A stretch of DNA of 32,000 nt from Promethearchaeum syntrophicum (GTDB lineage Archaea; Asgardarchaeota; Lokiarchaeia; Sigyniarchaeales; Promethearchaeaceae): NCBI RefSeq assembly GCF_008000775.2, contig NZ_CP042905.2, positions 630,001-662,000 of the forward strand. Reading direction: 5' to 3'. Of the stretch, positions 5,469 to 31,582 are shown one piece after another. The notes beneath the pieces are model-generated. The model saw only the letters and a program-made list of their open reading frames with translations, searched no databases and was not told where the DNA came from. A program made the position numbers and the translations under genes. Position 1 is the first letter of the stretch. Each line of letters begins with the position of its first letter.

Positions 5469-5617
5469 GATTTAATTAGCAGATTAGAGAAATTTTATAT
5501 TTTTGATTAAAAAATAAAGGCAAATCTTAGGAAAGACAATATTCCAAAAGCATTTTTTTTTTAAATATTCAATTCTAATCAAATATTTAGAAAAAAAAAT
5601 AAATAAAGTGAAAAAAA

Positions 5618-8428: not shown

Positions 8429-8649
8429 TATTTTATCTCCTTTTTATTTTCAAAAAAATCTTATAAAGTCAAAATTTTTTCAATAATAATAAAAAATGTT
8501 GATTGAGGATGTTATTAAATTTGTTCTTTTAATTATAAAATAAGTAAATATATTCAATTAATAAATATAACTTCAGATTCAAAACTTGATATGTGTATGA
8601 TTTTTGAGATAGAATACGAAAATAATGAAATAAAAAAAATGTAGATAAA

Positions 8650-11477: not shown

Positions 11478-12263
11478 TTATAATGTACTGATGTTTGCAA
11501 ATTCTATAAAGAATCCTAATAGATATGCCAACCACCAACAGCCAAGGGTTGTATATCCGGTTAATTTTGCTAATCTTCGCATTCCAGATGTCCCGAATAA
11601 CGCGCTAGCAAAACCAAATGTTAAACCTACTCCCCCACAAATAATGTGTAAGGCGTGGATCCACCCAGAATAACCTTTCATTATATCTTGGGTTAAAGTG
11701 AATAACAATATCACGTTCAAAAGTGTGATAATCCAAGCACCACCTGCACTATAACCGTGGTATATACTATATTTGGGTTCGTCATAGATAACAAGGAGCG
11801 TTCCAATTGTGACCAATATTAATGCTGGAAGCCCTAAAGTTGAACCGAGGTGAAGACTATCATACTCAACTGTTCCACCAATCCAAATGAAAATAGAAAT
11901 AGTGATCATGAGTATATAGAGAATGGCTAGAAATGTAACGAATATACTTCTGATTGAGGGTTTTTTTAGTTTTTCAGATAATAAAACTGCAATAATAGTT
12001 ATTCCCAGAATTCCAATAGAATTCACAAATAACCAGATTTCAAGATCATATATTGCGACAGTAGTAACTTCGATTATTCCAATCACAAGCAATGTTGTGA
12101 GCATCGTTATTAATAGAGTTACTAATGTAATCAATACACCTTTCTTCTCATGCTTTTTGAAATAGTCTAAGAATAAAATCGTCCCTAATAAAATTGACAT
12201 AATTCCAATTGTTAAGATTATTTGGGCGATTCTAATCGTTTCTGATGATGTTATATTAACCAT
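11478..12263 (-). CDS. Polytopic membrane protein (about 8 TM); possible heme-copper oxidase subunit III-like component
   Basis: 261 aa and almost entirely hydrophobic. The motif GWIH203ALH206IICGG resembles GFHGLHVIIGS of COX3. It occupies the gene position after the subunit-I-like gene. The function call is weak. Confidence 0.6.
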   Translation of the reverse strand: MVNITSSETIRIAQIILTIGIMSILLGTILFLDYFKKHEKKGVLITLVTLLITMLTTLLVIGIIEVTTVAIYDLEIWLFVNSIGILGITIIAVLLSEKLKKPSIRSIFVTFLAILYILMITISIFIWIGGTVEYDSLHLGSTLGLPALILVTIGTLLVIYDEPKYSIYHGYSAGGAWIITLLNVILLFTLTQDIMKGYSGWIHALHIICGGVGLTFGFASALFGTSGMRRLAKLTGYTTLGCWWLAYLLGFFIEFANISTL

Positions 12264-12280
12264 AATGATTGCCTTCTTTT

Positions 12281-13780
12281 TTATTTCTCCTTCAATAATT
12301 TGAGATCATGTCTATGTGCATGTAAGATTACGTATATTGCGAAAATAAACCCAAGTATCATAATCCAAACACCTACAAAAGTTAAAATCATAGTTGGCAT
12401 CTTATCTGTCGTTGGTTTTCTCATCATGTAAGCATTAGCAAAAGTAAATGCCCACGTACCTCCAATAGATAATAACCATGCAGCAATAGAGCTAGATCGA
12501 GTTGTTTCAGGTTGGAAATGTTTAATGGCTATTAAAATTACTAGCACCGCAAGCAACACAGCAAGTACATGCCAATGTCCAACATTAAAGTCATATTCTA
12601 CATCAACATACTCATGCGTTCTAAATATATGTCGTGTGCGCAAACCAACACTGATCCCACAGATTGTAACAACTATTTGAGCATAGAGATAAATCCAATA
12701 CAGTGCAAATCTAGCTGGATCTGCAAACATGCCTTTAATTTTATTTCCAAGTGATGTTGCGGTATAGTTTTCTCCTAAATGTTCTTTTGATATTTCCATC
12801 AATCCATTTATAGAGAGAGCTATAGTACATAATATTAAAATTCCTGCACCCACCCAGATTAAGTAATGATTTAACACCCAAGCACCATAGGAGATTGTGA
12901 TGATACCAATTGGACATAAAAATAGCATAATGTGATAGATTGTTCCCTTGATTTTACTTATTTTATATCCCATCATTGTAATCATCGCACCTGTCAAAGA
13001 AAGTTGTATGTGAAGATGAGATACAATAAATTCTTCCGGATGATCATGAATTAAGACTTTAACTACTTCCTCCGCGAAAAATGCATCTTGGTTTGGTCGA
13101 TTCAATACCCATATTGAATTAGTAAAAACTTCCATAGCAGCTAAGGCACCATATACAATTGACACAAGAACACAAAATGCTAAAAGCACCATTGAATAAT
13201 TTTCCAAATCTAATCCATAGAATAGAGCTCCATCTGTGGCTTCCTTAGGATCCGGGAATTTATTCGGTACTGGCCATGCCGCGATTATAAATATAACTCC
13301 TCCTAGAAAGACTAAAAACAACCCAAAGTAAAAAAACTCATGTAAAAACCTAATTCGAGTATAGGCAAAAAGTAGTCCACAGATCCCAGAGATAAAAGAC
13401 CCAGTTACCAAGGTTACTTTCAAGCTTGGTACATACTTTTCTCGAATTTCAAAGAATTCAAAACACCAAAAGGTAGTAGCAGCCACAAAAGGTGTTGCGA
13501 TAGAATGGTATATCATAACGATTCGAGCAGATCTTCCCATTAAATCATCATTATAGATATCAAATAGTGGTTCTCCCCCCCAAATAAAGGACATAGGTTC
13601 GGAAAACGTAAGGAGGAAAAGTACTTCGCAAACTAACAAAATAATCAAGCTGATATGGATTTTATTATAGTTAAATTTCGACTTTTCCTCTTTTTCATGG
13701 GTTTCCATTGTAAGCTCTGCAGTTCCTATTGGAGGAATGTTTTTTTCTTCTATTTTCAATTTCATTTCACTTTTATCCAT
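12281..13780 (-). CDS. 12-TM membrane protein; candidate highly divergent heme-copper oxidase superfamily subunit I-like protein
   Basis: 499 aa with 12 predicted TM helices. H92 is in TM2, HDH247PEEF is at TM6, N304-H305 is in TM7, H389-E390 follows, and GH402WH404VL is in TM10. Order and spacing parallel bovine COX1 H61, GH240PEVY, H290-H291, H368-D369 and AH376FH378YV. I am confident it is a CDS; the family call is tentative. Confidence 0.55.
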   Translation of the reverse strand: MDKSEMKLKIEEKNIPPIGTAELTMETHEKEEKSKFNYNKIHISLIILLVCEVLFLLTFSEPMSFIWGGEPLFDIYNDDLMGRSARIVMIYHSIATPFVAATTFWCFEFFEIREKYVPSLKVTLVTGSFISGICGLLFAYTRIRFLHEFFYFGLFLVFLGGVIFIIAAWPVPNKFPDPKEATDGALFYGLDLENYSMVLLAFCVLVSIVYGALAAMEVFTNSIWVLNRPNQDAFFAEEVVKVLIHDHPEEFIVSHLHIQLSLTGAMITMMGYKISKIKGTIYHIMLFLCPIGIITISYGAWVLNHYLIWVGAGILILCTIALSINGLMEISKEHLGENYTATSLGNKIKGMFADPARFALYWIYLYAQIVVTICGISVGLRTRHIFRTHEYVDVEYDFNVGHWHVLAVLLAVLVILIAIKHFQPETTRSSSIAAWLLSIGGTWAFTFANAYMMRKPTTDKMPTMILTFVGVWIMILGFIFAIYVILHAHRHDLKLLKEK

Positions 13781-14425
13781 TTAGTGTTTCACTTCTTCTT
13801 TTTTTTTCCCAAATATCCGCCATAATGCTAGTGGTGTCATAACTACAATTGTACAAACGAGTGTTGGTACCACAGCTTCAATCATGGAATGTTCTGTATC
13901 ATACCAAGGATGACCAGAAATAAGTGAATGTGTATAAGCACCGCCCAAACTACAAAATGCGGTGACTGCGATTAATGTCCATTCAGGAGCGTCTATGCTG
14001 TAATTATAATGATTTATTAAATCATCTGCTTGATTGGTATAGTGTCTGTCCTCCACTAAAGTTTTATTAAGTGTGCCAATATCTACTACATCAAAAACAT
14101 ATGCTTCTCGGATTGCATAGTCTCCGAATATTTCATGTTCTTCTACCTCATCGCTCACCAATAGATATTTATCTTGTGTAGTAAAATTTTCTATAAGCTC
14201 TTTAGGTAATTGATAGAATTCTATTGTAACTCTCTCTATGTAATGATATTCGGAATCTGATACTCCATGAGTGATATAAACACTCAATATTTTGTCTTGA
14301 TTATAATATTTGAGGTCTATAAATCTTGGATCATGGGCACTTGCATTTATGCTACCAGTAGTAAAACCAACCATAAATATTAGAGATATTAACAAAGTCC
14401 AAGCTCTCTTTCTATTATTACTCAT
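13781..14425 (-). CDS. Extracytoplasmic His/Cys-containing protein with an N-terminal signal/anchor and a C-terminal TM helix; occupies the subunit-II position
   Basis: 214 aa. The N-terminal hydrophobic segment is WTLLISLIFMVGFTTGSINASA and the C-terminal TM is AVVPTLVCTIVVMTPLALW. Candidate ligands are H31, H53, H61, C158, H166 and H172. Its stop codon directly abuts the ATG of the next gene. Confidence 0.6.
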   Translation of the reverse strand: MSNNRKRAWTLLISLIFMVGFTTGSINASAHDPRFIDLKYYNQDKILSVYITHGVSDSEYHYIERVTIEFYQLPKELIENFTTQDKYLLVSDEVEEHEIFGDYAIREAYVFDVVDIGTLNKTLVEDRHYTNQADDLINHYNYSIDAPEWTLIAVTAFCSLGGAYTHSLISGHPWYDTEHSMIEAVVPTLVCTIVVMTPLALWRIFGKKKEEVKH

Positions 14426-15290: not shown

Positions 15291-16517
15291 TTACAACTTT
15301 TTAGGTATCTTTTTGATTTCCTGAGCAAATTTTTTGCCCATTTCAAAACCTTTATCTAAATCCTCATCCTTTGGCCCACCTTGAAATTCTAAAGGCTCTA
15401 AACAATCCCATTTCAATTTCTCAGTCATCTGATCGAAATGTTTCTGGGCTCCACCTGACCATCCGAAACTTCCAAAACGAAATACTTTCTTATTCCAAAC
15501 ATGCTTTTTAGCAAGCAAAGATATTAAATCTTGCATAGGGGGGTACATTTTATATTCATAAGTTGGCATTCCAAAAACCAGTCCTGCAGATTCCCATGCA
15601 GATGCTAAGATATAGGATTTATCATCCTCAGGCACCCGAAAAATTTTAACATGAACACCCTCTGATGCAATACCTTTCAATACCGAACGAAGCATTTTTT
15701 CTGTATTGGAATACATTGAGCCCCAAATGACAGTAATTTTTGGTTCAGCATAATCATTCATGTAATTTGCATAAGTTTTATATCTGTTTACTATTGTTCT
15801 AGGATTTCCTCTCCAGACTAATCCATGGGATGGTGCGATAATTTTGATATCTAAAGGTCCGAGGGCGTCAATAGCCTTTAGAACGAAGTTCGAGAAAGGT
15901 CCTACAATATTTGCATAATATCTTAAGGATTCATTTTCGTAAAAAAGATGATCTTCTTCGCTGTTTTCATCATCAAAAAGAGATCCCTTTAATGCACCAA
16001 ATGAACCGAAAGCATCGCATGGAAATAAAGTTTCTGTACTGCTCTCAAAAGTTGCCATCGTTTCTGGCCAATGAACATTTGGAATATCATAAAAAGTTAG
16101 AACCTTACCTTGACCTAAATCAAGTGTATCTCCTGAACTAACCGCTTTAACATTTTCTGTAATTCCATAAAAGGCTTCAACTAGAGGTTTTCCCTTTGTT
16201 GAAGTAATAATCTCTGCTTTTCCGGATAATTCATTAAACCCTCTTAAATCTCCTGTGTGATCCGGTTCTAAGTGATTAACAATAAAATAATCAACATCCT
16301 TGATACTTATTCCAATAGAATTCAATTCGTCAATTAAGTTAGATTGAGCTCCACCCCAATCACGAACTAAATCAATAATCGCAATTTTATCTCCTCTAAC
16401 TACGTATGAATTAATAGTTACCCCATTTGGGATTGGCCATAAACCTTCAAATAGATCATTTGTCGAAATATTTGCACCAATCCAATAAATTCCATCTGTA
16501 ATTTCAGTAGCTTTCAT
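15291..16517 (-). CDS. fprA: Flavodiiron protein (FprA-type A-type flavoprotein; O2/NO reductase)
   Basis: 408 aa. It has a metallo-beta-lactamase-like domain with the diiron motif HLEPDHTG, followed by a flavodoxin-like domain (KITVIWGSMYSNTEKM). Confidence 0.9.
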   Translation of the reverse strand: MKATEITDGIYWIGANISTNDLFEGLWPIPNGVTINSYVVRGDKIAIIDLVRDWGGAQSNLIDELNSIGISIKDVDYFIVNHLEPDHTGDLRGFNELSGKAEIITSTKGKPLVEAFYGITENVKAVSSGDTLDLGQGKVLTFYDIPNVHWPETMATFESSTETLFPCDAFGSFGALKGSLFDDENSEEDHLFYENESLRYYANIVGPFSNFVLKAIDALGPLDIKIIAPSHGLVWRGNPRTIVNRYKTYANYMNDYAEPKITVIWGSMYSNTEKMLRSVLKGIASEGVHVKIFRVPEDDKSYILASAWESAGLVFGMPTYEYKMYPPMQDLISLLAKKHVWNKKVFRFGSFGWSGGAQKHFDQMTEKLKWDCLEPLEFQGGPKDEDLDKGFEMGKKFAQEIKKIPKKL

Positions 16518-16553
16518 TTTGATTCACATAACAATTTTTAATATATAAAAAAT

Positions 16554-16892
16554 TTACAAAGGACGCCGTTCTGGTATTCCTTGAGTTTCTTTTCCACTAT
16601 CATAAAAATCTTGTGTTAAATATAAACCACAATAACAATGTCCATACTCTTCTTGATCGGGAATGCAATAATCACATGGACAAATAATATCTTTATCTTC
16701 TTCTTTAACCCCATCCCCATCTCGACAAGGACAGCTGTAATAACCATATCTATTGTAATTAGCATTTAAACCATCAATTATCGAATCCAAAAACTCAACA
16801 TCACGCGTTAATTTCCATGCGTTTTTTTTTGCAACCATTTCTACAAATTTTCGTGTATCTTCAATATTTTTTTCTTTTTTTGTTTTGGACAT
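16554..16892 (-). CDS. Ferredoxin:thioredoxin reductase catalytic subunit-like protein
   Basis: 112 aa. It has the CPC...CPC...CHC-type pattern: YYSCPCRDGDG...IICPCDYCIPDQEEYGHCYCGLYL. Confidence 0.85.
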   Translation of the reverse strand: MSKTKKEKNIEDTRKFVEMVAKKNAWKLTRDVEFLDSIIDGLNANYNRYGYYSCPCRDGDGVKEEDKDIICPCDYCIPDQEEYGHCYCGLYLTQDFYDSGKETQGIPERRPL

Positions 16893-16960
16893 ATTTAATT
16901 AAATCTCCTTTTAATTCATAAAAAAAAAGTAGTCACTTGTTGGGATATGAATTAAATTTA

Positions 16961-17260
16961 TCATAGACCACAAATTTCTTCCCAATCACTTTTTACAAAC
17001 CCAACTATTGCTTTTTCATCATTACAGACTAAAAATGGAAATGCGACTCTTCTATTAAATTTCTTTTTAAGACTTTCTTTTATTTTTGATTTCTTTTCAA
17101 TATCTATTTTATCAACATAAACATATCTAAATTTAACTTCATTTTCCCTAAGAAAATTCAATCCTCTACGACAAAATCCGCATGTGGATAAAGCAAATAC
17201 TGTTAATTCATTTGTAGCAATTTTTCCGTCTTCTTCGATAAAGTCAATATCTTCGTACAT
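16961..17260 (-). CDS. Glutaredoxin/thioredoxin-like small redox protein
   Basis: 99 aa. It has a CxxC active site in a Grx-like context: VFALSTCGFCRRGLNFLRENEVKFRYVYVD. Confidence 0.8.
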   Translation of the reverse strand: MYEDIDFIEEDGKIATNELTVFALSTCGFCRRGLNFLRENEVKFRYVYVDKIDIEKKSKIKESLKKKFNRRVAFPFLVCNDEKAIVGFVKSDWEEICGL

Positions 17261-17391
17261 AGTTAAATTCAGCCTCGAATAGATAAAAAAATAACGTTAT
17301 GAAATCTTATTCAAAATAGAAAAATTCATTATTAAAAATAAGTAATATTGTTTATCAAATCATATACATTAGAAAAGAGTGTTGATTAAAA

Positions 17392-18582
17392 ATGAAGATA
17401 TTAATTATCGGAAATGGAATTGCTGGACAGACAGTTGCGGAAGAAATTCGAAAAAACAATTCAGACTATGAAATAAATATCATTACAAAAGAACCCTATC
17501 TTTATTATTCACGTATTTTCCTCCCGAGCTATCTAATAGGAGAAAAATCTTTAGATAAACTCATCTTACATTCAATTGAATGGTATAAAAATCGAAATAT
17601 TTCAGTTGAGTTAAATAAGCAAATTGACCAGATTGATCGGGTTAACAAAAAATTACATGTTCTTGAAGATGATAATTGGATTAACTATGATAAATTAGTT
17701 ATTGCATCAGGAAGTAATGCAAGAATACTCCATTTTGGAAATCCAAATCTAAAAGGTGTGTTCAGTTTGCGAAATGTCGCCGATGCAGATACAATTCGGA
17801 ATTATATTAATAAGAATAATGTAAAAGATGTACTAGTTATAGGGGGTGGGTTATTAGGGATAGAAATTGGTTTTAATTTACGAGATCTTCAATTAAATGT
17901 TACTATATGTGAAATTGCACCATATCTACTTCCACGGCAGTTAGATCGAGGGACTTCAAAACTCCTTCAAAAGTATCTGGAATCTAAAAATTTGGAGATA
18001 TTATGTGATGTTGCTGTAGAGAAAATATTAGGTGATAAAAGGGTTACAGGGATTAAACTGAAAAATGGTATGGAAAGGAAATTTGATATGATAATTCAGC
18101 AGATGGGAATCATTCCCGAGATATCTCTGGCTCAAAAAAGTGATATTCAAGCTGAAAAAGGCATTATCGTTAATGAATACATGCAAACAAACGATCCCGA
18201 TATTTATGCTGTTGGAGATTGTATTCAATTTAATGGAAGAATCTGGGGGATTATTCCTGCTAGTAGAGAGCAGAGTAAATTAGCTGCGAAACATATTTTA
18301 AAATTAAATCCTGAAAAATATCAAGGGACTTTCTGGAATACACGTTTAAAAATAGCTGGAATAAATTTAACTTGTTTAGGTTCTCCTGAAGAAGAAGATA
18401 AAGAAGAAACTAAGCTTATTGAATCAGTAGATGAAGAAAAATTTCTTTGTAGAAAAGTCCGGATTGAAGATAATCAAATTAAAAGTGCAATTTTGTTAGG
18501 ACCTGGAAAAGATAATTTCTTCGTGAAAAATTTAGGGAAAGAAGTGGATTTCGATGAAGTAAAAAAGAAAGTCTATGAATAA
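17392..18582 (+). CDS. NAD(P)H/FAD-dependent pyridine nucleotide-disulfide-family oxidoreductase (rubredoxin-reductase / NirB-N-terminal-like)
   Basis: 396 aa. It has two Rossmann motifs (KILIIGNGIAGQTVA; VLVIGGGLLGIEIGF) and AVGDC near the FAD-binding C-terminal motif. Confidence 0.85.
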   Translation: MKILIIGNGIAGQTVAEEIRKNNSDYEINIITKEPYLYYSRIFLPSYLIGEKSLDKLILHSIEWYKNRNISVELNKQIDQIDRVNKKLHVLEDDNWINYDKLVIASGSNARILHFGNPNLKGVFSLRNVADADTIRNYINKNNVKDVLVIGGGLLGIEIGFNLRDLQLNVTICEIAPYLLPRQLDRGTSKLLQKYLESKNLEILCDVAVEKILGDKRVTGIKLKNGMERKFDMIIQQMGIIPEISLAQKSDIQAEKGIIVNEYMQTNDPDIYAVGDCIQFNGRIWGIIPASREQSKLAAKHILKLNPEKYQGTFWNTRLKIAGINLTCLGSPEEEDKEETKLIESVDEEKFLCRKVRIEDNQIKSAILLGPGKDNFFVKNLGKEVDFDEVKKKVYE

Positions 18583-18624: not shown

Positions 18625-19143
18625 TTACCCTTTATAGAGACCTAGTTTTCTCAAATAATTTAAAACACTAATGCATAATTCTTCCTCAAATTTCTGATAT
18701 ATTCCTAAATTGCCCTTTCCCAGTTCAATTGGTTCTTTGAAAACTTCATAGAATCTATTTAATAATATTTCTGCTTCTTCTTCCAAATGATTTTTCACCA
18801 TATTTGGTCTAAAAAAGAAAACTGTTATCAAAGATTTTTTGGAAACGATATTCATTTCAACATTTAATCCCTCTATATAAATTCGTTTGATTTGACCAAC
18901 ATTTTCCTTACCGAACATTGAGAGGGCTGCTATAAAATTAGATATTAAATCAATCTTCAGAGTAGAGTCGATTTGATAAGAAAAAAGGATATCACCACCA
19001 GTTCGGCAAATAAAAATTCCAAGCATATATTTCTTAAGTTTTCTTTGGACAAGTTTATATTGTTCTTCAGTGAGAACTTTAGGTTTATAACCATTAAAAG
19101 CGTAATTCTCTTTTTTTTCTTGGAGTGAATTCATTTTATTCAA
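18625..19143 (-). CDS. Roadblock/LC7- or longin-like fold protein (putative GTPase partner)
   Basis: 172 aa. The predicted alpha-beta-beta-alpha-beta-beta-alpha pattern is MLGIFICRTGGDILFSYQ / DLISNFIAALSMFG / IKRIYIEGLNVEMNIV / SLITVFFF / EEEAEILLNRFYEVF. It lies 11 nt downstream of the GTPase gene. The fold call rests on sequence pattern only. The start is either TTG at 19143 or ATG at 19134. Confidence 0.45.
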   Translation of the reverse strand: MNKMNSLQEKKENYAFNGYKPKVLTEEQYKLVQRKLKKYMLGIFICRTGGDILFSYQIDSTLKIDLISNFIAALSMFGKENVGQIKRIYIEGLNVEMNIVSKKSLITVFFFRPNMVKNHLEEEAEILLNRFYEVFKEPIELGKGNLGIYQKFEEELCISVLNYLRKLGLYKG

Positions 19144-19154: not shown

Positions 19155-20108
19155 CTATTCTAAATTTTCTTCTTTTTTGAAGATTTCAATAGCTAATTTT
19201 TCAAACATCTCATCCACGTTTTCTCCTGTCTTTGCTGAGCATTCAATAAACAGAAATCCATGTTCGATTGCATAATTTAAACCCTCTTGTCTTGAAACCT
19301 TTCGTTCTAAGTCAGATTTATTTCCAACTAATAAAACTGGAACTTTGCCTAAATTTTCTTCTAAATCTGCAACCCACTTATCTAAGTGTTTAAACGATAA
19401 AGCATTGTTTATATCGTAACAGATTAAAGCTCCTTTGGCATCCTTAAAATATATACCTCGAATTTTGTCATATTGATCTTGACCTGCCGCGTCCCATACA
19501 TTCATTCGCGCTGTAAAGCGATATGTTCCTGAAAATAATAAATCTGTGCTCAAATAAGATGTTTTTATTTCTTTTGTGCCGAAATCCACACCCAAAGTTG
19601 TTTTAAGATCTTTCTTGAAATAATTATCTGTAAATCGAACTTTGATTGCTGTTTTTCCAACTGCTGTATCTCCGATCTCTATTATTTTGAAGGAGTAATT
19701 GCTTCTTAGAAGAGTTTTTGCTTCGTTTATTGCCCAACTTTCAATATTTTCCCCTGTTATTAGAGTCGGTGAAATATCACTCATTTCCGTAAGTTTTAAT
19801 ATAAAGCCATTGACATAAGTATCATATTCCATATTTTCTAAAGCTTTTTCATTAAAAGTTTCAATCTTACCAGAACAAGGTGCATTTAAAGTGGTTACTC
19901 CTTGTTCAGAAGCAATTGCTACAAACGGTAAGCCTACTTTAATTTCATTTTCAACTAGTAAACTTATTTCTGTAGGATTTTTTAAGAAAGCGTATCCTAT
20001 CTGGTCTAAGCCTATTATTTTCTTCTGTAAATTCATATAAACATGTTGATTTTTGCTATAATATAATTCATTCGGTAGATCATAACGACCATCAGCTATA
20101 GTTACCAT
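19155..20108 (-). CDS. Fusion protein: N-terminal GcvH-like (lipoyl-domain-fold) domain plus C-terminal Rab/Ras-like small GTPase
   Basis: All five G motifs are present: G1 GDTAVGKT, G2 TTLGVDF, G3 WDAAGQ, G4 GNKSD, G5 ECSAKTG. Residues 1-125 align by hand to E. coli GcvH (PNELYYSKNQHVYM vs PAELKYSKEHEWL; FVAIASEQGVTTLNAPCSGKIETFN vs [25 protein letters not shown]). Confidence 0.85.
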   Translation of the reverse strand: MVTIADGRYDLPNELYYSKNQHVYMNLQKKIIGLDQIGYAFLKNPTEISLLVENEIKVGLPFVAIASEQGVTTLNAPCSGKIETFNEKALENMEYDTYVNGFILKLTEMSDISPTLITGENIESWAINEAKTLLRSNYSFKIIEIGDTAVGKTAIKVRFTDNYFKKDLKTTLGVDFGTKEIKTSYLSTDLLFSGTYRFTARMNVWDAAGQDQYDKIRGIYFKDAKGALICYDINNALSFKHLDKWVADLEENLGKVPVLLVGNKSDLERKVSRQEGLNYAIEHGFLFIECSAKTGENVDEMFEKLAIEIFKKEENLE

Positions 20109-20155
20109 TTTTTTTCTTCTCCATATTTACTTATTTTTTAATCATAATATTAATA

Positions 20156-20596
20156 TCATTTCACTTGAATCCGATCCATGATTTTATCCCAGAATTCATT
20201 TTTAAATTCGGGATTAACTAATATAACTTTTTTCATCTTTACCTTTTCAATTTCAGGAATTTTATTGCCGGTTCTAAGAGGTAAATTGTTTCTATTTAGA
20301 ATATGTCCATCCAATTTCATGGAAATTGCATCAAATGGGCATAATGTCAGACATACACCACAAAAAACACATTTCAATGGATCTGGGAAAAATGGAACCC
20401 GTTCTTTTCTGGGCACTTTTTTTCCTTTAGGAATTTCTGGCTTGAATAATGCATTTTTTGGGCAAGCTTTTACGCATTGATAACATGAGGTGCATTTGTT
20501 AAGATCAAACATCAAGTCTGTTGTACGATTCATATATTCTATTTTTGTATTTCTAACCGAAAAATTTATAGATTCTTCCACAATTGGCCATTTCAT
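20156..20596 (-). CDS. 2x[4Fe-4S] ferredoxin-domain protein, the last gene of hdr/mvhD operon 1
   Basis: 146 aa. It has CTSCYQCVKACPKNA and CVFCGVCLTLCPFDA. Its start overlaps the mvhD stop by 1 nt. Confidence 0.8.
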   Translation of the reverse strand: MKWPIVEESINFSVRNTKIEYMNRTTDLMFDLNKCTSCYQCVKACPKNALFKPEIPKGKKVPRKERVPFFPDPLKCVFCGVCLTLCPFDAISMKLDGHILNRNNLPLRTGNKIPEIEKVKMKKVILVNPEFKNEFWDKIMDRIQVK

Positions 20597-21066
20597 TAAA
20601 TAACAACCTCCTCAAGTTTTTTAAATTCCTTTGCAGCTATTTTTTTACGGGAATTTGGTCCAATTTTCTTCAATTCAGATACAAATTCTCGAATATGTTC
20701 GGTAAATTCAGCTCCTTCACTAGCGCTAATATGCCAGAGCTTAAATCGTTTTGGATCAATCCCATATTGTTCCATAAACGTATTCATAATAGAAAATCTT
20801 CTTACTGCTTTTTCATTCCCTTCTATATAATGACAATCTCCTAAATGACACGCCCCAATTATGACTCCATCAGCTCCATTTTTCAAAGCTTCTATTGCAT
20901 AACTGGGTTCCATTCTTCCAGAGCACATCAAACGAATTATTCTAACATCTGCAGGTCGTTGCATACGGCTTACACCAGCTTGATCACTTCCAGTATAAGT
21001 GCACCAGTTACAAGCAAAACAAACAATATACGGCTCGAAATCACTTTTTTCAATCATTTTAATCAC
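20596..21066 (-). CDS. mvhD: MvhD-type (methyl-viologen-reducing hydrogenase delta subunit family) [2Fe-2S] protein
   Basis: 156 aa. The diagnostic sequence is IVCFACNWCTYTGSDQAG...RIIRLMCSGRMEPSYAIEALKNGADGVIIGACHLGDCHY. Confidence 0.9.
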   Translation of the reverse strand: MIKMIEKSDFEPYIVCFACNWCTYTGSDQAGVSRMQRPADVRIIRLMCSGRMEPSYAIEALKNGADGVIIGACHLGDCHYIEGNEKAVRRFSIMNTFMEQYGIDPKRFKLWHISASEGAEFTEHIREFVSELKKIGPNSRKKIAAKEFKKLEEVVI

Positions 21067-21073
21067 TTAAATT

Positions 21074-23056
21074 TTAAATTTCTTTGATATAATTCTCCCA
21101 AGGTCTTAATGCCCTTACTTCACTTAAAATTTGATTGCGAGTGAAATGATTCTGTATAATTGCATTTGATGGGCAAGAGCTTACACATACACCACATCCT
21201 TTGCATTTTATTGCATTTATATCTGCAGTTTTCGTAGTTTCATCAAAACTTATTGCATCATATGGGCAAAGTTGGATACATGATCTGCATCCTGAACATA
21301 TTTCTGGTTGAACCATTGAATAATAAGGCTCAATTTCTACTTCACCTGAATACATGAAATTATCCGCACTGCTAGCTGCTGCTTTCGCCTGAGCTACTGA
21401 GTCAGGTATATCACGTGGCGCTTGGCAAGTACCTGCAATAAAAATTCCAGTTGAGAGTGAATCTACTGGTTTAAGCTTTGGGTGTGCTTCCATGAACATT
21501 CCATCTTCTGAACATTGAATACCGAAAAATCGACCTACTTCATCAGCATCTTTTCGAGCTTCAATGGCTGTTGATAAAATGAGCATATCAACTTCAACTT
21601 CATACTTTTCAGCAAGTAAAGTATCGCTTCCCCTTAAAATTAAGGATCCATCATTTTTTTCAAAAACATCTCCAATTCTACCCCGGATAAAATTAATTCC
21701 ATATTCTCTTGAAGCAATTTCATAAAATTCTTCATAACCTTTTCCAAATGCCCTCAAATCAATGTAAAATATAAAAACTTCTGAATCTGGATATTTCTCT
21801 TTAAATTGCCTTGCTTGTTTTACCGCATACATACAACACACTCGTGAACAATATTTATGAGTGCCTTCATGAAAATCACGTGAACCTACACACTGTAAAA
21901 ATGCAATTCGTTTTGGTGTTTTATGGTCTGAAGGTTTTATTACTTTACCTAATGTTGGACCTGTACTGGAAAGTAAACGTTCCATCTCGATAGCAATTAG
22001 TACATTTTTATATTTTTGATATCCGTAGCGATAAAGTTGGGAAGGATCAAAAATATCATTTCCTGTTGCAATAATTATCGAACCGACTTTTAAATCAATA
22101 ATTTCATCTTTTAAGCTAAAATCTATGGCATTTACTTCACACGCATCAACACAAAGCATACATTCAATGCATGATTTTATATCGATTGTATATTGTTCAG
22201 GAATTGCTTGAGGAAATGGAACATAGGCCGCACGTCTATAACCCATATTATAATCAAATTCGTTTGGAACAGTAACAGGACAAATTTCACCACAAGCTCC
22301 ACAGCCTGTGCATATGGAATGATTTATTCTTCGATTTTTTTTTCTTACCTTAACCTCAAAATTTCCTACATTTAGATCTACACTTTCTATTTCAGAATAC
22401 GTAAGTAGATCTATATTCGGGTTTCGTCCAACTTCTACCATCTTAGGAGTAGTAATACATGCAGAGCAGTCCATTGTTGGAAAAGTTTTATCAAGTTGCG
22501 CCATATGACCTCCTATTGAAGGAGTTCGCTCTACTAAATGAACTTTATATTTATTTGCGAGATCAAGGGCAGCAAACATTCCTGTAATTCCTGCTCCGAC
22601 AATTAAAGCTTCTTTAGTTACCTCTATTTTTTGTCTAATTAATGGTCTATCATTCGATACTTTTGCAACCGCCATTTTAATATGATCTTTTGCAATTTCC
22701 ATAGCGCCTTTATGATCCCTCATACTTACCCATGATGCATGTTCACGTATGTTTGCTTGTTCAAAAAAGAACTCATTAAAACTGTTTTCACGCATGACTC
22801 TTCGATATGTTTCCTCATGCATGAGTGGACTACAAGCAGCTACTACAACACGATCAACTTTACCTGATTTTAAATCCTCTGCTATCAAATCCTGACCTGC
22901 ATTGCTACACATGAATTTGAAGTTTTTTACTGAAACAACATTAGGTATATGTTTTGAATATTCCGTTATTTCATCCATGTCAATAACATCTGCAATATTT
23001 TTACCACAATGGCAAATATATACTGCAACTTTTGGTTTAGGTCTTTCTAAACTCAT
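21074..23056 (-). CDS. hdrA: Heterodisulfide reductase subunit A (full-length, bifurcating type with ferredoxin-like inserts)
   Basis: 660 aa. The N-terminus has VAVYICHCGKNIA, the FAD motif is ALIVGAGITGMFAALDLA, and the protein has several CxxCxxCxxxCP motifs. There is a 4-nt ATGA overlap with hdrB. Confidence 0.92.
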   Translation of the reverse strand: MSLERPKPKVAVYICHCGKNIADVIDMDEITEYSKHIPNVVSVKNFKFMCSNAGQDLIAEDLKSGKVDRVVVAACSPLMHEETYRRVMRENSFNEFFFEQANIREHASWVSMRDHKGAMEIAKDHIKMAVAKVSNDRPLIRQKIEVTKEALIVGAGITGMFAALDLANKYKVHLVERTPSIGGHMAQLDKTFPTMDCSACITTPKMVEVGRNPNIDLLTYSEIESVDLNVGNFEVKVRKKNRRINHSICTGCGACGEICPVTVPNEFDYNMGYRRAAYVPFPQAIPEQYTIDIKSCIECMLCVDACEVNAIDFSLKDEIIDLKVGSIIIATGNDIFDPSQLYRYGYQKYKNVLIAIEMERLLSSTGPTLGKVIKPSDHKTPKRIAFLQCVGSRDFHEGTHKYCSRVCCMYAVKQARQFKEKYPDSEVFIFYIDLRAFGKGYEEFYEIASREYGINFIRGRIGDVFEKNDGSLILRGSDTLLAEKYEVEVDMLILSTAIEARKDADEVGRFFGIQCSEDGMFMEAHPKLKPVDSLSTGIFIAGTCQAPRDIPDSVAQAKAAASSADNFMYSGEVEIEPYYSMVQPEICSGCRSCIQLCPYDAISFDETTKTADINAIKCKGCGVCVSSCPSNAIIQNHFTRNQILSEVRALRPWENYIKEI

Positions 23057-24078
23057 ATGTTTTTACCTCCTGCAAAATCATCTAATGGAATATTTTCAAT
23101 TTTCTTCAGTAATTTATCGAACGGAACAAATGGTGATATTCCTTTCAATTCTTCAGGTTTTATCATCCCGAGGTCTTCAGGTTCAAATCCCATTGCTAAT
23201 CCTAAAAGTTGGGTAATATATATAACTGGAATTCTGAACTCTTCTTCTCCCTCATCTAATAATTTGGAAACTTCAATTTGTCCTAAATCAAACTGCAAAT
23301 GGCAAAATGGACAACACACTACAATGCAATCTACTCCAACTTTACGAATTTGTCGCAATTTCTCTAAAGTATATTGAAGACTATTATCTTTAAAACCAGT
23401 TCTTAACGATCCTCCTGCTCCACAGCACATTAATTTTTCTTGATAATCAATTGATTGACATCCGATTTTCTCAACAACCTCATCAAAAAATGTAGGATTA
23501 TCAGGATCTTGTCCAAAAAGCTGCGTGGTTGCTGGCTTAAGAATGTGACAACCATAATGAATAGCTGTTCGTAAATTAAGTGTTCTTTTAACTAATTTTT
23601 TTATTTTCTCCAATCCTATATCAAAATAAAGTACATCCATTACTTGACGCACATTAACCTTACCATCAAAATGAATATTTTTTTCTGCAAGAATATCATT
23701 GATTCTTTTATTAATTTCTGGATTTGATTTCATTTCATGTTCTACTTCGTGTAATGTGCCAAAACATCCATTGCACAGTGTCAATAATTCGGTTGTATTA
23801 TTATTTTGGGCGATTGTTAGATTTCGTGTCCCTAATGTAAGCCAAAGTGCTTTATCGACGGATCTAAACACTCCTGGTGCAGGACAGCATGTAGCACCAT
23901 TCATATCTATAAGCTCTATTCCCAGTTTGTTAAAAACAAAGCGAGATGCGCGTTCGATCATAGGATAACGATTTGGAATAACACACCCTAAATATAACGA
24001 ATATTTTAAATCTGATAGGGGTTTTTCAGTTAGTTCTTCCTTTGATTGCTCCCTATTTTGTTCTTTAATTTCTGTCAT
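23053..24078 (-). CDS. hdrB: Heterodisulfide reductase subunit B (two CCG domains)
   Basis: 341 aa. Motifs include YSLYLGCVIPNRYP, GATCCPAPG, LCNGCFG, LMCCGAGGS and CPFCHLQFD. Confidence 0.9.
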   Translation of the reverse strand: MTEIKEQNREQSKEELTEKPLSDLKYSLYLGCVIPNRYPMIERASRFVFNKLGIELIDMNGATCCPAPGVFRSVDKALWLTLGTRNLTIAQNNNTTELLTLCNGCFGTLHEVEHEMKSNPEINKRINDILAEKNIHFDGKVNVRQVMDVLYFDIGLEKIKKLVKRTLNLRTAIHYGCHILKPATTQLFGQDPDNPTFFDEVVEKIGCQSIDYQEKLMCCGAGGSLRTGFKDNSLQYTLEKLRQIRKVGVDCIVVCCPFCHLQFDLGQIEVSKLLDEGEEEFRIPVIYITQLLGLAMGFEPEDLGMIKPEELKGISPFVPFDKLLKKIENIPLDDFAGGKNI

Positions 24079-24119
24079 TAATTCTCATCTTCTCTTCATT
24101 TCAAAGGTTTTCAATTTTA

Positions 24120-24662
24120 TTAGCGATATGGGATACGTGCATTAAATTTAATTTTATCAAGTAAGGTAAAAAGCTCATCCAATGCTTCAGGAAACTTGTG
24201 AACAGTTGGAGGTATTTTATCTAATTTATGTAATTCTCGTAATTTTGCCCATTTTGAATCTGCTCCTCCCAGAGGAACTGCATGGCCCGTATTTGCTAAA
24301 TTCTTAATGACATTTTTCAAAGCATCTGGTAAATAGCCCTCCCTAACTGCCATATTCCTCAATTTTAAAATTACATTAGTAACTGGAATTGTTCTTGGGC
24401 AACGTTCATAACAATTAAAGCAAGTTGAACAATACCAGATATCTGGTTCTGAAAGAACTGAATGAACCCCTGCCAAGGCTTTTCTCATTATTTTTCTTGT
24501 TACTAAGGCTGTAAAACTACCACTGGGGCAAACTGATGTACACATTCCGCACTGAATACAACTACGAATCTTTTTCAAATCTTCATCAACAGAAAGTTCA
24601 TCTGAGTATTCAGAGCTATATTTTATTAATTTTGATTTATTTATCAATTCATTTTTCACCAA
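24120..24662 (-). CDS. hdrC: Heterodisulfide reductase subunit C
   Basis: 180 aa. Motifs are CIQCGMCTSVCPSG and CSTCFNCYERCPR. The start is TTG at 24662 or GTG at 24659. Confidence 0.9.
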   Translation of the reverse strand: MVKNELINKSKLIKYSSEYSDELSVDEDLKKIRSCIQCGMCTSVCPSGSFTALVTRKIMRKALAGVHSVLSEPDIWYCSTCFNCYERCPRTIPVTNVILKLRNMAVREGYLPDALKNVIKNLANTGHAVPLGGADSKWAKLRELHKLDKIPPTVHKFPEALDELFTLLDKIKFNARIPYR

Positions 24663-25187: not shown

Positions 25188-25421
25188 ATGAAAACAATGG
25201 TAGATTTCGAATTAGATGCTAAGGGATTAAAATGTCCAATGCCAATCTTAAAAGCCAAAAAAGTTATTAAGAAAATGGAATCTGGACAAACATTTGAATT
25301 GGTTTCAGATGATGGCGGTTCAAAAGCAGATGTCCCACCTCTGCTAAATAAAACTGGTTGCACACTGGTTGAAATGAAAGAAGATGGTGGCGTTTTTACC
25401 TTTTTAATTAAAAAGGATTAA
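25188..25421 (+). CDS. tusA: TusA-family sulfurtransferase
   Basis: 77 aa. It has the diagnostic LDAKGLKCPMPILKAKKVI (CPxP active-site Cys). Confidence 0.88.
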   Translation: MKTMVDFELDAKGLKCPMPILKAKKVIKKMESGQTFELVSDDGGSKADVPPLLNKTGCTLVEMKEDGGVFTFLIKKD

Positions 25422-25427: not shown

Positions 25428-25793
25428 TTGATGATCATGAAAATTGGATTTGCAGTAATGACTGAATTTTTAAAATATCAGCAAATATACTCACTTCTTA
25501 AATTAATTGAAGCTGCTAAAGCAAAAAATCATCAAATAACAGGAATTTTCTTTTTTGGGACAGGGGTTTTAAATATTAAGAAAGGTGCCCATTTAGGAAA
25601 GAGCACAAAAAATATCCCACTTGAGTTAGAGAACTTACATGATATTCCAAAATATGCATGCCAAACATGGGCTGATAATTATGCTATATTCCCAGAAGAT
25701 ACAATCCAAGGATTGGAAATTACAGGTTTAGGTGAACTTTCTAATATCACGAAAGAATCTGATAAAATGATTTTCTTCGGAGCACATGCATAA
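25428..25793 (+). CDS. dsrE: DsrE/TusD-family sulfur-relay protein
   Basis: It is about 118-121 aa; the likely start is the ATG at 25437 (MKIGFAV). It has ITGIFFFGTGV and a Cys in the YACQTWADNY context, corresponding to the ICVAAALRRG active-site Cys of TusD. It is followed by dsrF/dsrH-like genes. Confidence 0.8.
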   Translation: MMIMKIGFAVMTEFLKYQQIYSLLKLIEAAKAKNHQITGIFFFGTGVLNIKKGAHLGKSTKNIPLELENLHDIPKYACQTWADNYAIFPEDTIQGLEITGLGELSNITKESDKMIFFGAHA

Positions 25794-25808: not shown

Positions 25809-26189
25809 ATGAGAAAAATGGAATCAGTTTTAGTAATGTGTAATTCCGGTCCTTTTGGAACAAATTCAACATATGAATCAATCCGATTAGGTTCTGGATT
25901 TATGGGTTTAGGTGAGGATATAAATTGTAAAATTCTGTTTTATGGTGATGCAGTTCTCTCTGTAAAAAAGAATTTGAATTCCGGTAAGATTGGAATGGAT
26001 TCATTTGAAGAAGGATTAGAAATGGCTGATTTAAGTGAATTACCGATAATTGTAATTGAAGAGGATTTAATTACAAGGGGTATGACAACAAGGGATTTGT
26101 TTGAATTCGAAGATTGTCCTATTCAAGTAATTAAAGAAAATCAATTAGGGGAAATAATGACCCAATTTGATGCAGTATTTCAAATGTAG
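25809..26189 (+). CDS. dsrF: DsrF/TusC-family sulfur-relay protein
   Basis: 126 aa. It has the pattern VLVMCNSGPFGT...ESIRL...ILFYGDAVL...EEDLITRG and sits between the dsrE-like and dsrH-like genes. A GGAG precedes the ATG. Confidence 0.75.
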   Translation: MRKMESVLVMCNSGPFGTNSTYESIRLGSGFMGLGEDINCKILFYGDAVLSVKKNLNSGKIGMDSFEEGLEMADLSELPIIVIEEDLITRGMTTRDLFEFEDCPIQVIKENQLGEIMTQFDAVFQM

Positions 26190-26200: not shown

Positions 26201-26527
26201 ATGGCAAAAAATTTGATATTATTCGGACATAGTGGTTTCGATTTAAATAATTACAAGAGTTTGACAAAAATCCTAAATAATACAACTGAATGTCTTGTTG
26301 TTTTGATGGAAGATGGTGTGAATGGTGTAATAAAAACAGATGCAACAAGTGATTTTGAACCTTACAATGATATTCTTGAAAAAAATATTCCACTATACTG
26401 TGTTGTTGAAGATTTGGAAGCACGAGGTTTTGAATCATCACAATTAAAATCGTCTATTAATCATTTAACTTATCTAGAATTAATAAATTTGATTGAAACA
26501 TCGAATCGAGTTATTTCGTTATTATAA
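26201..26527 (+). CDS. dsrH: DsrH/TusB-family sulfur-relay protein
   Basis: 108 aa. VVLMEDGV and LYCVVEDLEARGF parallel LLLLQDGV and VYALNEDLIARGL of TusB. Confidence 0.75.
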   Translation: MAKNLILFGHSGFDLNNYKSLTKILNNTTECLVVLMEDGVNGVIKTDATSDFEPYNDILEKNIPLYCVVEDLEARGFESSQLKSSINHLTYLELINLIETSNRVISLL

Positions 26528-26597: not shown

Positions 26598-27017
26598 ATG
26601 CCAAAACAAATGAATTTTATTGTCTCGGAAAATAGTTTTGAAAAATTCGGGATGATGGTGATATTGGGCACTACTGGTGCTGCGATGGAGACACAAATGA
26701 ACTTCTTCTTTACATTTTGGGGACTTTTCCTCCTAAAGAGAAGTTATAATCCCGGAGTCGCTAAAATGCCCTTCCCATTCAAGAAGATGGGCGGAACGAT
26801 GTTTAAAAAGATGTTGAAAGGATTTGGATATGATGACATGTGGGAAATGATAAAAGATGGTGTTGAAGAAGGCAAAATTAAATTATACCCATGCTCAATG
26901 ACTATGGACTTACTAAGAATCAAACGCAAATCAATGCACAAATTCGTTGAAGAACCTGTTGGTGCCGCTGCATTCTTAGAGATGTGCGATAATGCAGATT
27001 CAGTAATTTCATTATAA
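26598..27017 (+). CDS. DsrE/DsrF-like family protein (COG2210-type, also annotated as a peroxiredoxin-family protein)
   Basis: 139 aa. Features are FIVSENSFEKFGMMVILGTTGAAM, FFFTFWG, a conserved Cys in LYPCSMTMDL, and the C-terminal GAAAFLE. Confidence 0.7.
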   Translation: MPKQMNFIVSENSFEKFGMMVILGTTGAAMETQMNFFFTFWGLFLLKRSYNPGVAKMPFPFKKMGGTMFKKMLKGFGYDDMWEMIKDGVEEGKIKLYPCSMTMDLLRIKRKSMHKFVEEPVGAAAFLEMCDNADSVISL

Positions 27018-27115: not shown

Positions 27116-27619
27116 GTGGGAAAAAAAGAAGTTATGAATAATATATCGAATGGGACAAATCATAAAGCGTTCCTTGATGAAATTGATAAGAAAATCCTTA
27201 CGCTCATTCAAGAGGATGGAAAAGCCTCACTACGAACAATTTCTAAAACTATAGGATCCAGTATTTCCACTGTTAAAAATCATCTAGATAGATTAAATGA
27301 AATTGAAGTCATAAAACGAACTATTGCGGTTGTTGATTGTTGCAAAATTGGATATACAGAAATGATTTTAATATCTATTCGAGTAAATTCTTCTGTCGGA
27401 ATTCAAGAAATTCTAGATCATCTTGAAGAAATTGAACAAATTAATGCAATTTATCAAGTATCAGGTAATTATCCAATCTTTTGTTTCGCTAAATGCGTTG
27501 AAAAGGAAGATCAAATAAATTTACTTGAAGATATAAAAAAAACCAAAGGAATTGATGAGGCAGTAACCCAAATTGTTCTCAAAAGAGTAAAGGAAGATAT
27601 GCGAGTTAAAATACCATAA
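27116..27619 (+). CDS. Lrp/AsnC-family transcriptional regulator
   Basis: The HTH reads LDEIDKKILTLIQEDGKASLRTISKTIGSSISTVKNHLDRLNEIEVI and is followed by a RAM-like domain. The start is GTG at 27116 or ATG at 27134. The gene ends 16 nt before hdrC of operon 2. Confidence 0.85.
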   Translation: MGKKEVMNNISNGTNHKAFLDEIDKKILTLIQEDGKASLRTISKTIGSSISTVKNHLDRLNEIEVIKRTIAVVDCCKIGYTEMILISIRVNSSVGIQEILDHLEEIEQINAIYQVSGNYPIFCFAKCVEKEDQINLLEDIKKTKGIDEAVTQIVLKRVKEDMRVKIP

Positions 27620-27635
27620 ATTAGAAGGAAAAAAA

Positions 27636-28247
27636 ATGACAAGTAATACTAAAAGCGAAATTGAAAACGATTTTCTAGAAGAAAAGAAAAAATATGTTGA
27701 GTTAAGTGATTTTGATTCTCATTTTTTTGATGACATCGAAAATCGGAGCAAAATCTTATCATGTATTCAATGTGGAACATGTTCCGCGAGTTGTGAATCA
27801 GGTAGATGGACAGCGTTAAAAACCAGAATGATTATTCGAAAAGTAATATTAGGTGATCTCTCAGTATTAGAGGATCCTGACATCTGGCTTTGTACGACAT
27901 GTTATAATTGTTATGAGCGTTGTCCCCGTAATTTGAAACCTACAGAAGTAATTATCGAATTAAGGAATTATGCATCGAAATTAGGAAATATTCATCCAGT
28001 TCATAGGAAAGTGGTAGATTTTCTAAAAGCAACAGGTCATGCTGTTCCAATCAATGATGAAACGATCCAGAAACGAAAAGAATTGGGTATTGATGAAATT
28101 CCACCAACCTTATACAAATTTAAAGATGAAGAAAATAGTGATTTGACAAAATATGCAAAGGAATTATTCAATCTAGTTCCTCCTAAAGAAAAAAAGGACG
28201 CAGGAATGAATAAAAACAAAGTTATAGATAAAGAAAAGAAGGCTTAA
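27636..28247 (+). CDS. hdrC: Heterodisulfide reductase subunit C (second copy)
   Basis: 203 aa. Motifs are CIQCGTCSASCESG (CE instead of CP) and CTTCYNCYERCPR. It has a Lys-rich C-terminal tail. Confidence 0.9.
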   Translation: MTSNTKSEIENDFLEEKKKYVELSDFDSHFFDDIENRSKILSCIQCGTCSASCESGRWTALKTRMIIRKVILGDLSVLEDPDIWLCTTCYNCYERCPRNLKPTEVIIELRNYASKLGNIHPVHRKVVDFLKATGHAVPINDETIQKRKELGIDEIPPTLYKFKDEENSDLTKYAKELFNLVPPKEKKDAGMNKNKVIDKEKKA

Positions 28248-28250
28248 AAA

Positions 28251-31176: not shown

Positions 31177-31582
31177 TGAACAAAAAGATGTTCTTGCCTT
31201 TATGTGTGCTGAATGTGGTCAAGGTGCTGCAGTCACTGCAGGTGTTGCTAGATTAAAATATGATACTTCTGTCAAAATCATTCGAGTAAAGTGCAGTGGC
31301 TTAGTAGGACCTATCCAAATAATGGATGCATTAAAAAATGGAGCAGATGCAGTTGCCGTAATTGGTTGCTGCTTTCAGGCTTGTCATTTTTTCAATGGGA
31401 ATTTTCTTTCTATGCATCGAATAAAACTTATGAAAAAGCTCTTTAAGGAAATGGGATACAGCGATCAAATGATTAATCATTATACTGCTCGAGCTGCGGA
31501 AGGTGAAACTGCTACTGGGGATTTTGAAGATGCTATTGAACGTTTGATGAAAGCAGAAGAAGAAGGAGGAACTTTTGCATGA
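31169..31582 (+). CDS. mvhD: MvhD-family protein (second, more divergent copy)
   Basis: 137 aa. It reads LAFMCAECGQGAAVTAG...IIRVKCSGLVGPIQIMDALKNGADAVAVIGCCFQACHF. It overlaps hdrA by 8 nt. Confidence 0.85.
   Translation: MLSEQKDVLAFMCAECGQGAAVTAGVARLKYDTSVKIIRVKCSGLVGPIQIMDALKNGADAVAVIGCCFQACHFFNGNFLSMHRIKLMKKLFKEMGYSDQMINHYTARAAEGETATGDFEDAIERLMKAEEEGGTFA

Follow-up and report, generated by a model that had tools for sequence, protein, structure and literature searches.

Lipoate-binding proteins of the LbpA type are GcvH-like components of sulfur-oxidizing Hdr (sHdr) systems (Cao et al. 2018, PMC10332631, PMC11094781). These sHdr-LbpA systems have been reported to be always accompanied by the sulfur transferases TusA and DsrE, with TusA interacting with both LbpA and sHdr (PMC11094781), and Asgard archaea including Promethearchaeum syntrophicum MK-D1 carry the LipS1/S2 lipoate synthases (PMC10332631). 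A second described group is formed by the Asgard Rag-like GTPases fused to longin or Roadblock domains, in which a small alpha/beta interaction domain, often lineage-specific, is covalently attached to the GTPase (PMC10933270, bioRxiv 10.1101/2020.10.19.343400). A study modeling all 74 small GTPases of MK-D1 marked accessory domains other than Roadblock/longin with a '?', as being of unknown function, and makes no reference to glycine cleavage or lipoyl domains (Tran et al. 2024, PMC10933270). Here we describe a gene from P. syntrophicum that joins an H-protein-fold domain without the lipoyl lysine to a Rab-type GTPase. It lies at 19155..20108 on the minus strand, stop codon included, within a 32,000-nucleotide window of contig NZ_CP042905.2 (positions 630,001 to 662,000), to which all unassigned coordinates below refer. 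On balance we judge it probable that the product is a Rab-type switch whose H-fold is a pseudo-carrier used for docking or targeting, that it works with a 169-aa protein encoded directly downstream and that the H-fold was recruited from an Hdr-associated LbpA-like protein.

The gene is an ATG-start open reading frame (ORF) of 317 aa, and the product is 100% identical to the MK-D1 'GTP-binding protein' at NCBI (P0001). Its N-terminal domain spans residues 1-132 (19713..20108, minus strand). Pfam GCV_H (PF01597) matched residues 16-110 with 20.8 bits (E=3.9e-4), slightly below the 22.2-bit cut-off, and the NCBIfam H-protein equivalog models (TIGR00527 family) gave 18.6-27.9 bits against a cut-off of 115-117 bits. 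A profile built from 40 homologous N-domains (A1) matched solved H-proteins with E=5e-6 to 3e-3, and the AlphaFold2 (AF2) model computed from the same alignment reached a mean predicted local distance difference test score (pLDDT) of 95.2 and a predicted template modeling score (pTM) of 0.87. In a Foldseek search of the PDB with this model, the top 22 matches were all H-proteins or GcvH-L (TM 0.54-0.76, probability 1.00), and plain lipoyl and biotinyl domains ranked far below them, so the domain has a whole H-protein fold, which is more than a lipoyl-domain-like barrel. It shares with GcvH the overall fold, with a TM of up to 0.76, and the signatures 'Y..(Q/E)H(V/E)(Y/W)' near the N-terminus, 'SP.SG' after the hairpin and 'D.Y..G(F/Y/W)'. 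The initial annotation, made by eye from the sequence, had proposed a GcvH-like region of about 125 residues with Gln69 in place of the lipoyl-lysine, and both proposals held: the first through the profile (E=5e-6) and the predicted structure, the second through the codon CAA at 19902..19904 (minus strand) and through the profile alignment to Mycobacterium tuberculosis GcvH, in which position 69 stands exactly opposite the lipoyl-Lys ('aittekgittlnsP' versus 'EVESTKSVSDLYAP').

Across 105 homologs the lysine-equivalent column is variable, with Asn in 24, Gln in 19, Arg in 17, Lys in 12, Ser in nine and Thr in six, and the flanking residues G70, P77 and G80 are kept in 103-105 of the 105. The same homologs offer no alternative invariant Lys or Cys in the N-domain, the C78 column being Cys in 69, Val in 30 and Ile in six. 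With Lys in so few members and Gln69 in this protein, the N-domain is not a lipoate carrier, and as read from the alignment the site of cofactor attachment has been abandoned across the family. It is very improbable that the domain is still a carrier, modified elsewhere or charged with another prosthetic group. Such a role would fit the retention of the full H-protein fold including the hairpin, as well as the LipS1/S2 lipoate assembly genes of Asgard archaea including MK-D1 (PMC10332631), but the residue at the hairpin tip may be N, Q, R, K, S or T, and no nucleophile is conserved there. Among the scanned ORFs of the window, moreover, no lipoylation gene (sLpl(AB), LipS1/S2 or any other ligase or lipoyl synthase) was found, and none of them contained a gcvT or gcvP domain.

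The C-terminal part of the protein (residues 137-317, 19158..19700, minus strand) is a small GTPase domain, matched by Pfam Ras (PF00071) over residues 141-309 with 158.5 bits (cut-off 21.6, E=1.4e-46) and also by Roc and Arf models. Its best 60 sequence matches in the PDB are all Rab or Ypt proteins, with Rab2B first (2.3e-35), followed by Rab2A, Rab14, the Thorarchaeota Rab 7EZB (E=1.4e-32), Ypt31/32 and Rab11. A structural search with the full-length model likewise gave only Rab proteins among its top 50 matches (TMt 0.70-0.86). By these sequence and model comparisons, the G domain is closest to Rab rather than to Ras, Rho or Arf, and its best matches are Rab2, Rab14, Rab11, Ypt31/32 and Rab8 together with the Thorarchaeota Rab. 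The motifs GDTAVGKT, T171, WDAAGQ, GNKSD and SAK are all present, and G146, G151, K152, T153, T171, D206, G209, Q210, N263, K264, D266, S291 and A292 are invariant in the 105 homologs, among them the catalytic Gln210 of switch II. None of the 105 members has a Cys in its last six residues. The earlier identification of the C-terminal half as a small GTPase without a prenylation Cys is therefore upheld by Pfam, by the PDB matches and by the family alignment, and a re-reading of the sequence reproduced the remaining sequence facts that had been listed with it, namely the motifs, the Gln69 codon and the lack of a C-terminal Cys.

Like Asgard Rab-like GTPases (7EZB and the MK-D1 set, PMC10933270), the fusion has the catalytic Gln and lacks the C-terminal prenylation Cys, and it differs from them in the 132-residue N-terminal H-fold domain and a longer interswitch hairpin; compared with eukaryotic Rab proper, the geranylgeranylation Cys motif is not present. 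The beta2-beta3 hairpin between the switches is about 12 residues longer than in Rab2A/2B, where the alignment shows a gap, and this family-specific insertion lies at residues ~183-199 (19512..19562, minus strand). Its length is conserved, since the spacing from F176 to W205 is 28-30 residues in 103 of 105 members, and it is modeled with lower confidence (pLDDT ~70-78) in the full-length AF2 model. That model has a pLDDT of 86 and a pTM of 0.60, with each domain predicted confidently. In the models the last helix of the H-fold (residues 121-134) is followed nearly without a linker by beta1 of the G domain (137-147).

This near-direct junction, the very high conservation of switch I and of the interswitch insertion, and the correlated evolution of the two domains, whose identities to the query rise and fall together across homologs (r=0.87), could all be accounted for if the N-domain were an intramolecular regulator, acting in an autoinhibitory, GDI-like or dimerizing manner by contacting the switches or the interswitch hairpin, and were not used to dock other proteins. 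We consider this improbable. A pTM of 0.60 comes with no confident interface between the domains, and regulation within the molecule would leave both the conservation of the partner gene and the enrichment of hdr genes described below unexplained. We also know of no GTPase regulator that has an H-protein fold.

The fusion itself is a conserved feature. A database search returned more than 100 full-length homologs of 315-328 aa that cover the query end to end, from P. syntrophicum, Lokiarchaeum ossiferum, Harpocratesius, other Lokiarchaeia, Helarchaeota, Hodarchaeota and Sigynarchaeota. Paralogs are frequent, with at least two in MK-D1, three in L. ossiferum and two in one Helarchaeota metagenome-assembled genome (MAG), and in one case (L006, 980-3075) two family paralogs belonging to clusters 1 and 2 stand head to head on a single 3.4-kb contig, which suggests local duplication. 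An origin of the fusion in misassembly or a frameshift, or its being a pseudogene, is effectively refuted. The few short homologs of 107-171 aa found in metagenome data could be cited in favor of an artefact, but they run on into GTPase sequence or end in frameshift-like tails, no convincing split version was present among the homologs found, the catalytic motifs are all intact and the same 315-328-aa architecture recurs in more than 100 independent assemblies, including the closed genomes of the two cultured Lokiarchaeia (MK-D1 and L. ossiferum) and many MAGs. The search thus disposes of the concern, raised when the fusion was first noticed, that homologs might always be split.

Part of this picture is already known. 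For some homologs the precomputed Pfam annotations already reveal the architecture (about 20 bear PF01597), fusions of Asgard GTPases with small domains are established, and GCV_H domains without the lysine are common. In the full-text literature we found no paper that connects GcvH or GCV_H with Asgard small GTPases, in agreement with the initial annotation, which had not recognized the architecture as a described one. The longin and Roadblock fusions introduced above follow the same principle of a covalently attached small domain, but the present family has a barrel-sandwich hybrid H-fold as its attached domain, joined to a Rab-like and not a Rag/Arf-like G domain.

Directly downstream of the GTPase gene lies a gene for a 169-aa protein without any known domain ('P172', 18625..19134, minus strand), whose ATG at 19134 stands 20 nt past the GTPase stop; a longer ORF call begins with a TTG at 19143. 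The protein belongs to a family of 90 members, which all come from Asgard archaea and of which none has a Pfam domain, and a repeat database search with the family alignment found only these. A homolog of the partner lies directly downstream of the GTPase gene and on the same strand in L001-L007, L012, L024 and L096-L098 and nearby in L008, 13 fetched loci in all, and at least 16 further members of the partner family are on contigs equal in size to contigs bearing family GTPases. Within Lokiarchaeales, the conserved operon partner of the fusion is this 169-aa gene and not hdr. The initial annotation had paired the GTPase gene with hdr only and had missed it. The partner protein has no match in Pfam, NCBIfam or the PDB sequences, and a hydrophobic-moment heuristic was uninformative. 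A Roadblock or longin identity found no support: comparison by hhalign to LAMTOR2 and Ykt6 gave a probability of <1%, and no profile matched.

Several loci show variation on the arrangement of the pair. Two tandem copies of the partner gene are present in other Promethearchaeum MAGs (L001, 6875-7910; L003, 8962-10009), where they are 62-66% and 77-79% identical to the single copy of the window. In Harpocratesius repetitus (L024, 8058-8837), the partner gene is intact, but all that stands before it of the GTPase is a C-terminal remnant of 81 aa.

A search of the N-domain profile against 1.84 billion representative proteins retrieved 619 GCV_H-type proteins. The best scorers outside the family were stand-alone, Lys-bearing proteins of 139-154 aa (58-74 bits), whereas the canonical GcvH proteins of E. 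coli, human and B. subtilis scored 24-35 bits. The best-scoring stand-alone relative (P0169) is encoded by the third gene of an hdrC-hdrB-gcvH operon. Over 133 aa its identity to the window N-domain is 35%, and the two have in common the motifs 'MVTI.DG.Y.P' at the N-terminus and 'LI.GE.IE.W' at the C-terminus. This operon with its Lys-bearing gcvH occupies 3185-5052 of L084, and the same metagenome contig also encodes a 229-aa small GTPase. Another relative (P0171, 68 bits) is the LbpA of a textbook sHdr locus (L086) comprising a 353-aa HdrA, TusA, DsrE, an ArsR-type regulator, LbpA, two radical-SAM genes and two LplA-like ligases. The gene for P0174 precedes a CCG-protein gene, and that for P0173 is flanked by a lipoate ligase on one side and a radical-SAM gene on the other; lipoylation genes, missing from the scanned ORFs of the window, are present beside both P0171 and P0173. 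The genomic contexts of P0175, P0177, P0200 and P0252 were too short or uninformative. LbpA (Cao et al. 2018, PMC10332631, PMC11094781) accordingly belongs to the GCV_H sub-radiation that scores best with the family profile, and it shares the C-terminal 'L.xG....W' helix motif with the fused domain, from which it differs in retaining the lipoyl Lys and in not being joined to a GTPase.

Loss of the lysine is not peculiar to this family. Of the 135 best GCV_H representatives outside the family, about half are without it, among them bacterial multi-domain proteins (P0172, P0217 and P0252) in which the Lys-less GCV_H domain is preceded by an N-terminal Cys-rich motif and followed by a C-terminal extension, and such proteins look like an uncharacterized class of pseudo-carrier domains. 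Eukaryotic Abitram/FAM206A, a further Lys-less member, was considered as a specific relative and rejected; an unverified sequence of it scored 28 bits with Pfam GCV_H but only 10 bits with the family profile. Lysine loss is common to all of these domains, but none of those outside the family is fused to a GTPase.

Upstream of the GTPase gene and on the same strand lies hdr operon 1 (20156..24662, minus strand), which by Pfam encodes HdrC (24120-24662), HdrB (CCG, 23053-24078), a 660-aa HdrA (21074-23056), MvhD/FlpD (20596-21066) and a 2x[4Fe-4S] ferredoxin (20156-20596). The distance of 47 nt between this operon and the fusion gene, given at the outset, is correct, as the stop of the ferredoxin gene is at 20156. 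The AT-rich spacer (20109..20155, minus strand) has a GGAG 10 nt before the ATG of the GTPase gene; no terminator-like hairpin was found in it by a bacterial-type scan, which is weakly informative here, and promoter and terminator matches from scans of this type were no better than shuffled expectation. Because its HdrA is long and MvhD is present, hdr operon 1 is not an sHdr operon, the true sHdr locus L086 having the 353-aa HdrA. The analogy to sulfur-oxidizing Hdr systems drawn in the initial annotation therefore fails for the adjacent operon, which is of the long-HdrA/MvhD type and not of the type with a ~350-aa sHdrA (shdrC1B1AHC2B2 clusters), but it gains support from the N-domain, whose best-scoring relatives outside the family are LbpA-type proteins encoded in hdrCB or sHdr loci.

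This hdr block adjoins the orthologous GTPase gene in four genera, but outside Promethearchaeum the two are not co-directional. The block and the GTPase-partner pair point away from each other, across 177-405 bp, in L. ossiferum, HM1_B6_4, binchicken_co256_1 and another two MAGs. When family members were grouped into paralog clusters at the 64% identity level, four of seven clusters had no hdr within ~8 kb, including those of the second MK-D1 paralog and of both Helarchaeota copies. Hdr-like genes were nevertheless found in the fetched flanks (~8 kb) of 8 of 23 family loci, or 9 of 24 when the Harpocratesius remnant locus is counted, compared with 0 of 59 control loci bearing other Asgard small GTPases of similar length. 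This enrichment has a Fisher p=4e-6, which becomes p=5e-4 after related loci are collapsed; several of the hdr-linked loci come from one hdr1/hdr2 island and are not independent, and the controls were drawn from a wider range of Asgard lineages than the family loci were. The proposed linkage to hdr is supported as an enrichment near family loci, but placement of the fusion gene co-directionally behind hdr is not conserved. Different hdr paralogs are involved, namely hdr1, hdr2 (L014), hdrCB in the CR_4 Lokiarchaeote (L019) and mvhA-hdrBC (L024).

Some of these loci deserve description. At the Harpocratesius locus L024, the GTPase remnant and partner gene have an mvhA-hdrB-hdrC-(455 aa) block 4 kb upstream of them. 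At L019, an hdrCB pair orthologous to that of L084 is found 2.3 kb from the GcvH-Rab gene, with no stand-alone gcvH there. The same contig carries near-duplicate segments (3576-6053 and 8553-10474) with a truncated hdrB copy, a membrane-protein fragment and runs of N/X; these duplicates are probably an assembly problem, and the hdrB fragment directly upstream of the GTPase gene at L019 is probably untrustworthy.

On the other side of hdr operon 1, a ten-gene plus-strand cluster running from tusA to mvhD2 diverges from it across a 525-bp spacer. The cluster begins with tusA (25188-25421, plus strand), which encodes a 77-aa protein with a Pfam TusA score of 88.5 bits that was too short for the 90-aa limit of the original ORF list. 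It continues on the plus strand with dsrE (25428-25793), a dsrE/F-like gene (25809-26189), dsrH (26201-26527) and a DsrE2-type gene (26598-27017), followed by an AsnC/Lrp-type regulator and hdr operon 2 with hdrC2, hdrB2, hdrA2 (679 aa) and mvhD2 (27116-31582). The window therefore holds tusA, the four DsrE/DsrH-family genes and a second hdrCBA-mvhD operon within 11.5 kb, with tusA and the DsrE/DsrH-family genes 5-8 kb from the GTPase gene, on the other strand and upstream of hdr operon 2. In L. ossiferum, an ortholog of hdr operon 2 (HdrA 74% identity) lies 5.5 kb from another GcvH-Rab paralog (L014). The island holds the same protein families as the sHdr-LbpA system. It differs from that system in its type of Hdr, in the absence of lipoylation genes and in having an LbpA-like module that lacks the lysine and is fused to a GTPase.

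These neighborhoods raise the alternative that the protein is wired to HdrABC-MvhD and TusA-DsrE, with the Lys-less domain serving as a decoy or sensor that would dock where a lipoate-binding protein normally sits. The docking site would be on an HdrB/C-type (CCG) subunit or on a sulfur-relay protein, and the GTPase cycle would then gate the assembly, localization or activity of the redox complex. We consider this unlikely, though the least easily dismissed of the alternatives discussed here. It draws on the contrast between family loci (with L024) and controls, on the diversity of hdr paralogs near family loci, on the encoding of the best-scoring N-domain relatives in hdrCB or sHdr loci and on the presence of tusA, dsrE genes and the second hdrCBA-mvhD operon in the window, all the more as TusA and DsrE are reported constant companions of sHdr-LbpA systems and TusA is reported to interact with both LbpA and sHdr (PMC11094781). 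Against it, four of the seven paralog clusters lack a nearby hdr, the hdr-linked loci are partly one genomic island, and tusA and dsrE genes were not found beside the GTPase orthologs in other genera. The orientation relative to hdr varies, and an inversion in place would keep the two adjacent without selection.

The local operon is, in addition, of the long-HdrA/MvhD type, for which we know of no lipoate-binding partner. The stronger form of this alternative, physical coupling of a Rab GTPase to HdrABC-MvhD and TusA-DsrE through a decoy domain derived from an Hdr-associated LbpA, seems to us slightly less likely again. If it were true, an electron-bifurcating enzyme complex would be under the control of a G protein, and at least some 'membrane-trafficking-type' GTPases would have held metabolic jobs before eukaryogenesis.

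We return to the explanation given at the beginning, a Rab-type switch with a pseudo-carrier docking or targeting domain and a dedicated partner. The GTPase, as predicted from its intact motifs, would be a catalytically competent molecular switch. Having lost the lipoyl-lysine, the N-domain cannot serve as a swinging arm and would instead be a non-catalytic module for protein docking or targeting. The 169-aa partner, putatively co-transcribed with the GTPase gene, would probably act as its regulator or effector. The most likely source of the H-fold domain is an archaeal Hdr-associated lipoate-binding protein of the LbpA type, and recruitment from such a protein would explain why one ortholog group still stands beside hdrCBA-mvhD.

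Several points weigh against this explanation. In a neighbor-joining distance tree with 200 bootstraps, the family was monophyletic in 193 of 200 replicates, but the same tree joined it to other Lys-less GCV_H domains in ~80% of replicates, and no stable sister emerged that would place it with LbpA-type proteins. The partner gene is missing beside more distant family members (Helarchaeota and others), and the idea of a Roadblock/longin fold for its product found no support in profile searches. The full-length model, with its pTM of 0.60, does not fix the relative orientation of the two domains.

The remainder of the window contains further redox and other genes. Adjoining the partner gene is a thiol/redox gene set (15291-18582) made up of a pyridine-nucleotide-disulfide oxidoreductase with a rubredoxin-reductase C-domain (17392-18582, plus strand), a glutaredoxin-like protein (16961-17260), the ferredoxin:thioredoxin reductase catalytic chain (16554-16892) and a flavodiiron-type protein (15291-16517). 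Three consecutive minus-strand ORFs of 261, 499 and 214 aa are without a Pfam match (11478-14425), the 214-aa member having hydrophobic N- and C-terminal stretches. The minus strand also encodes a GlcD-like FAD_binding_4 protein (10008-11471) followed by a Fer4+CCG (HdrD/GlcF-like) protein (8650-10029), an acyl-CoA dehydrogenase with a C-terminal rubredoxin-like domain (7073-8428) and a 706-aa thioredoxin-DsbH (DUF255) protein (3348-5468). A UPF0175/PIN-like pair at 6175-7018 resembles a toxin-antitoxin module, and a 620-aa leucine-rich-repeat protein is encoded at 284-2146 on the plus strand.

Asgard archaea encode dozens of Rab/Rag/Arf-like GTPases. The family described here gives unusually concrete handles on their roles in the form of an accessory domain with ancestry among lipoate-carrier proteins but without their cofactor site, a dedicated partner protein and a statistically supported hdr neighborhood. 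As the family is present in both cultured Lokiarchaeia (MK-D1 and L. ossiferum), experiments on it are feasible. If the link to Hdr is functional, it would tie eukaryote-like G-protein signaling to archaeal energy metabolism; if it is not, the family would still show neatly how a carrier domain of the swinging-arm kind can become an interaction module.

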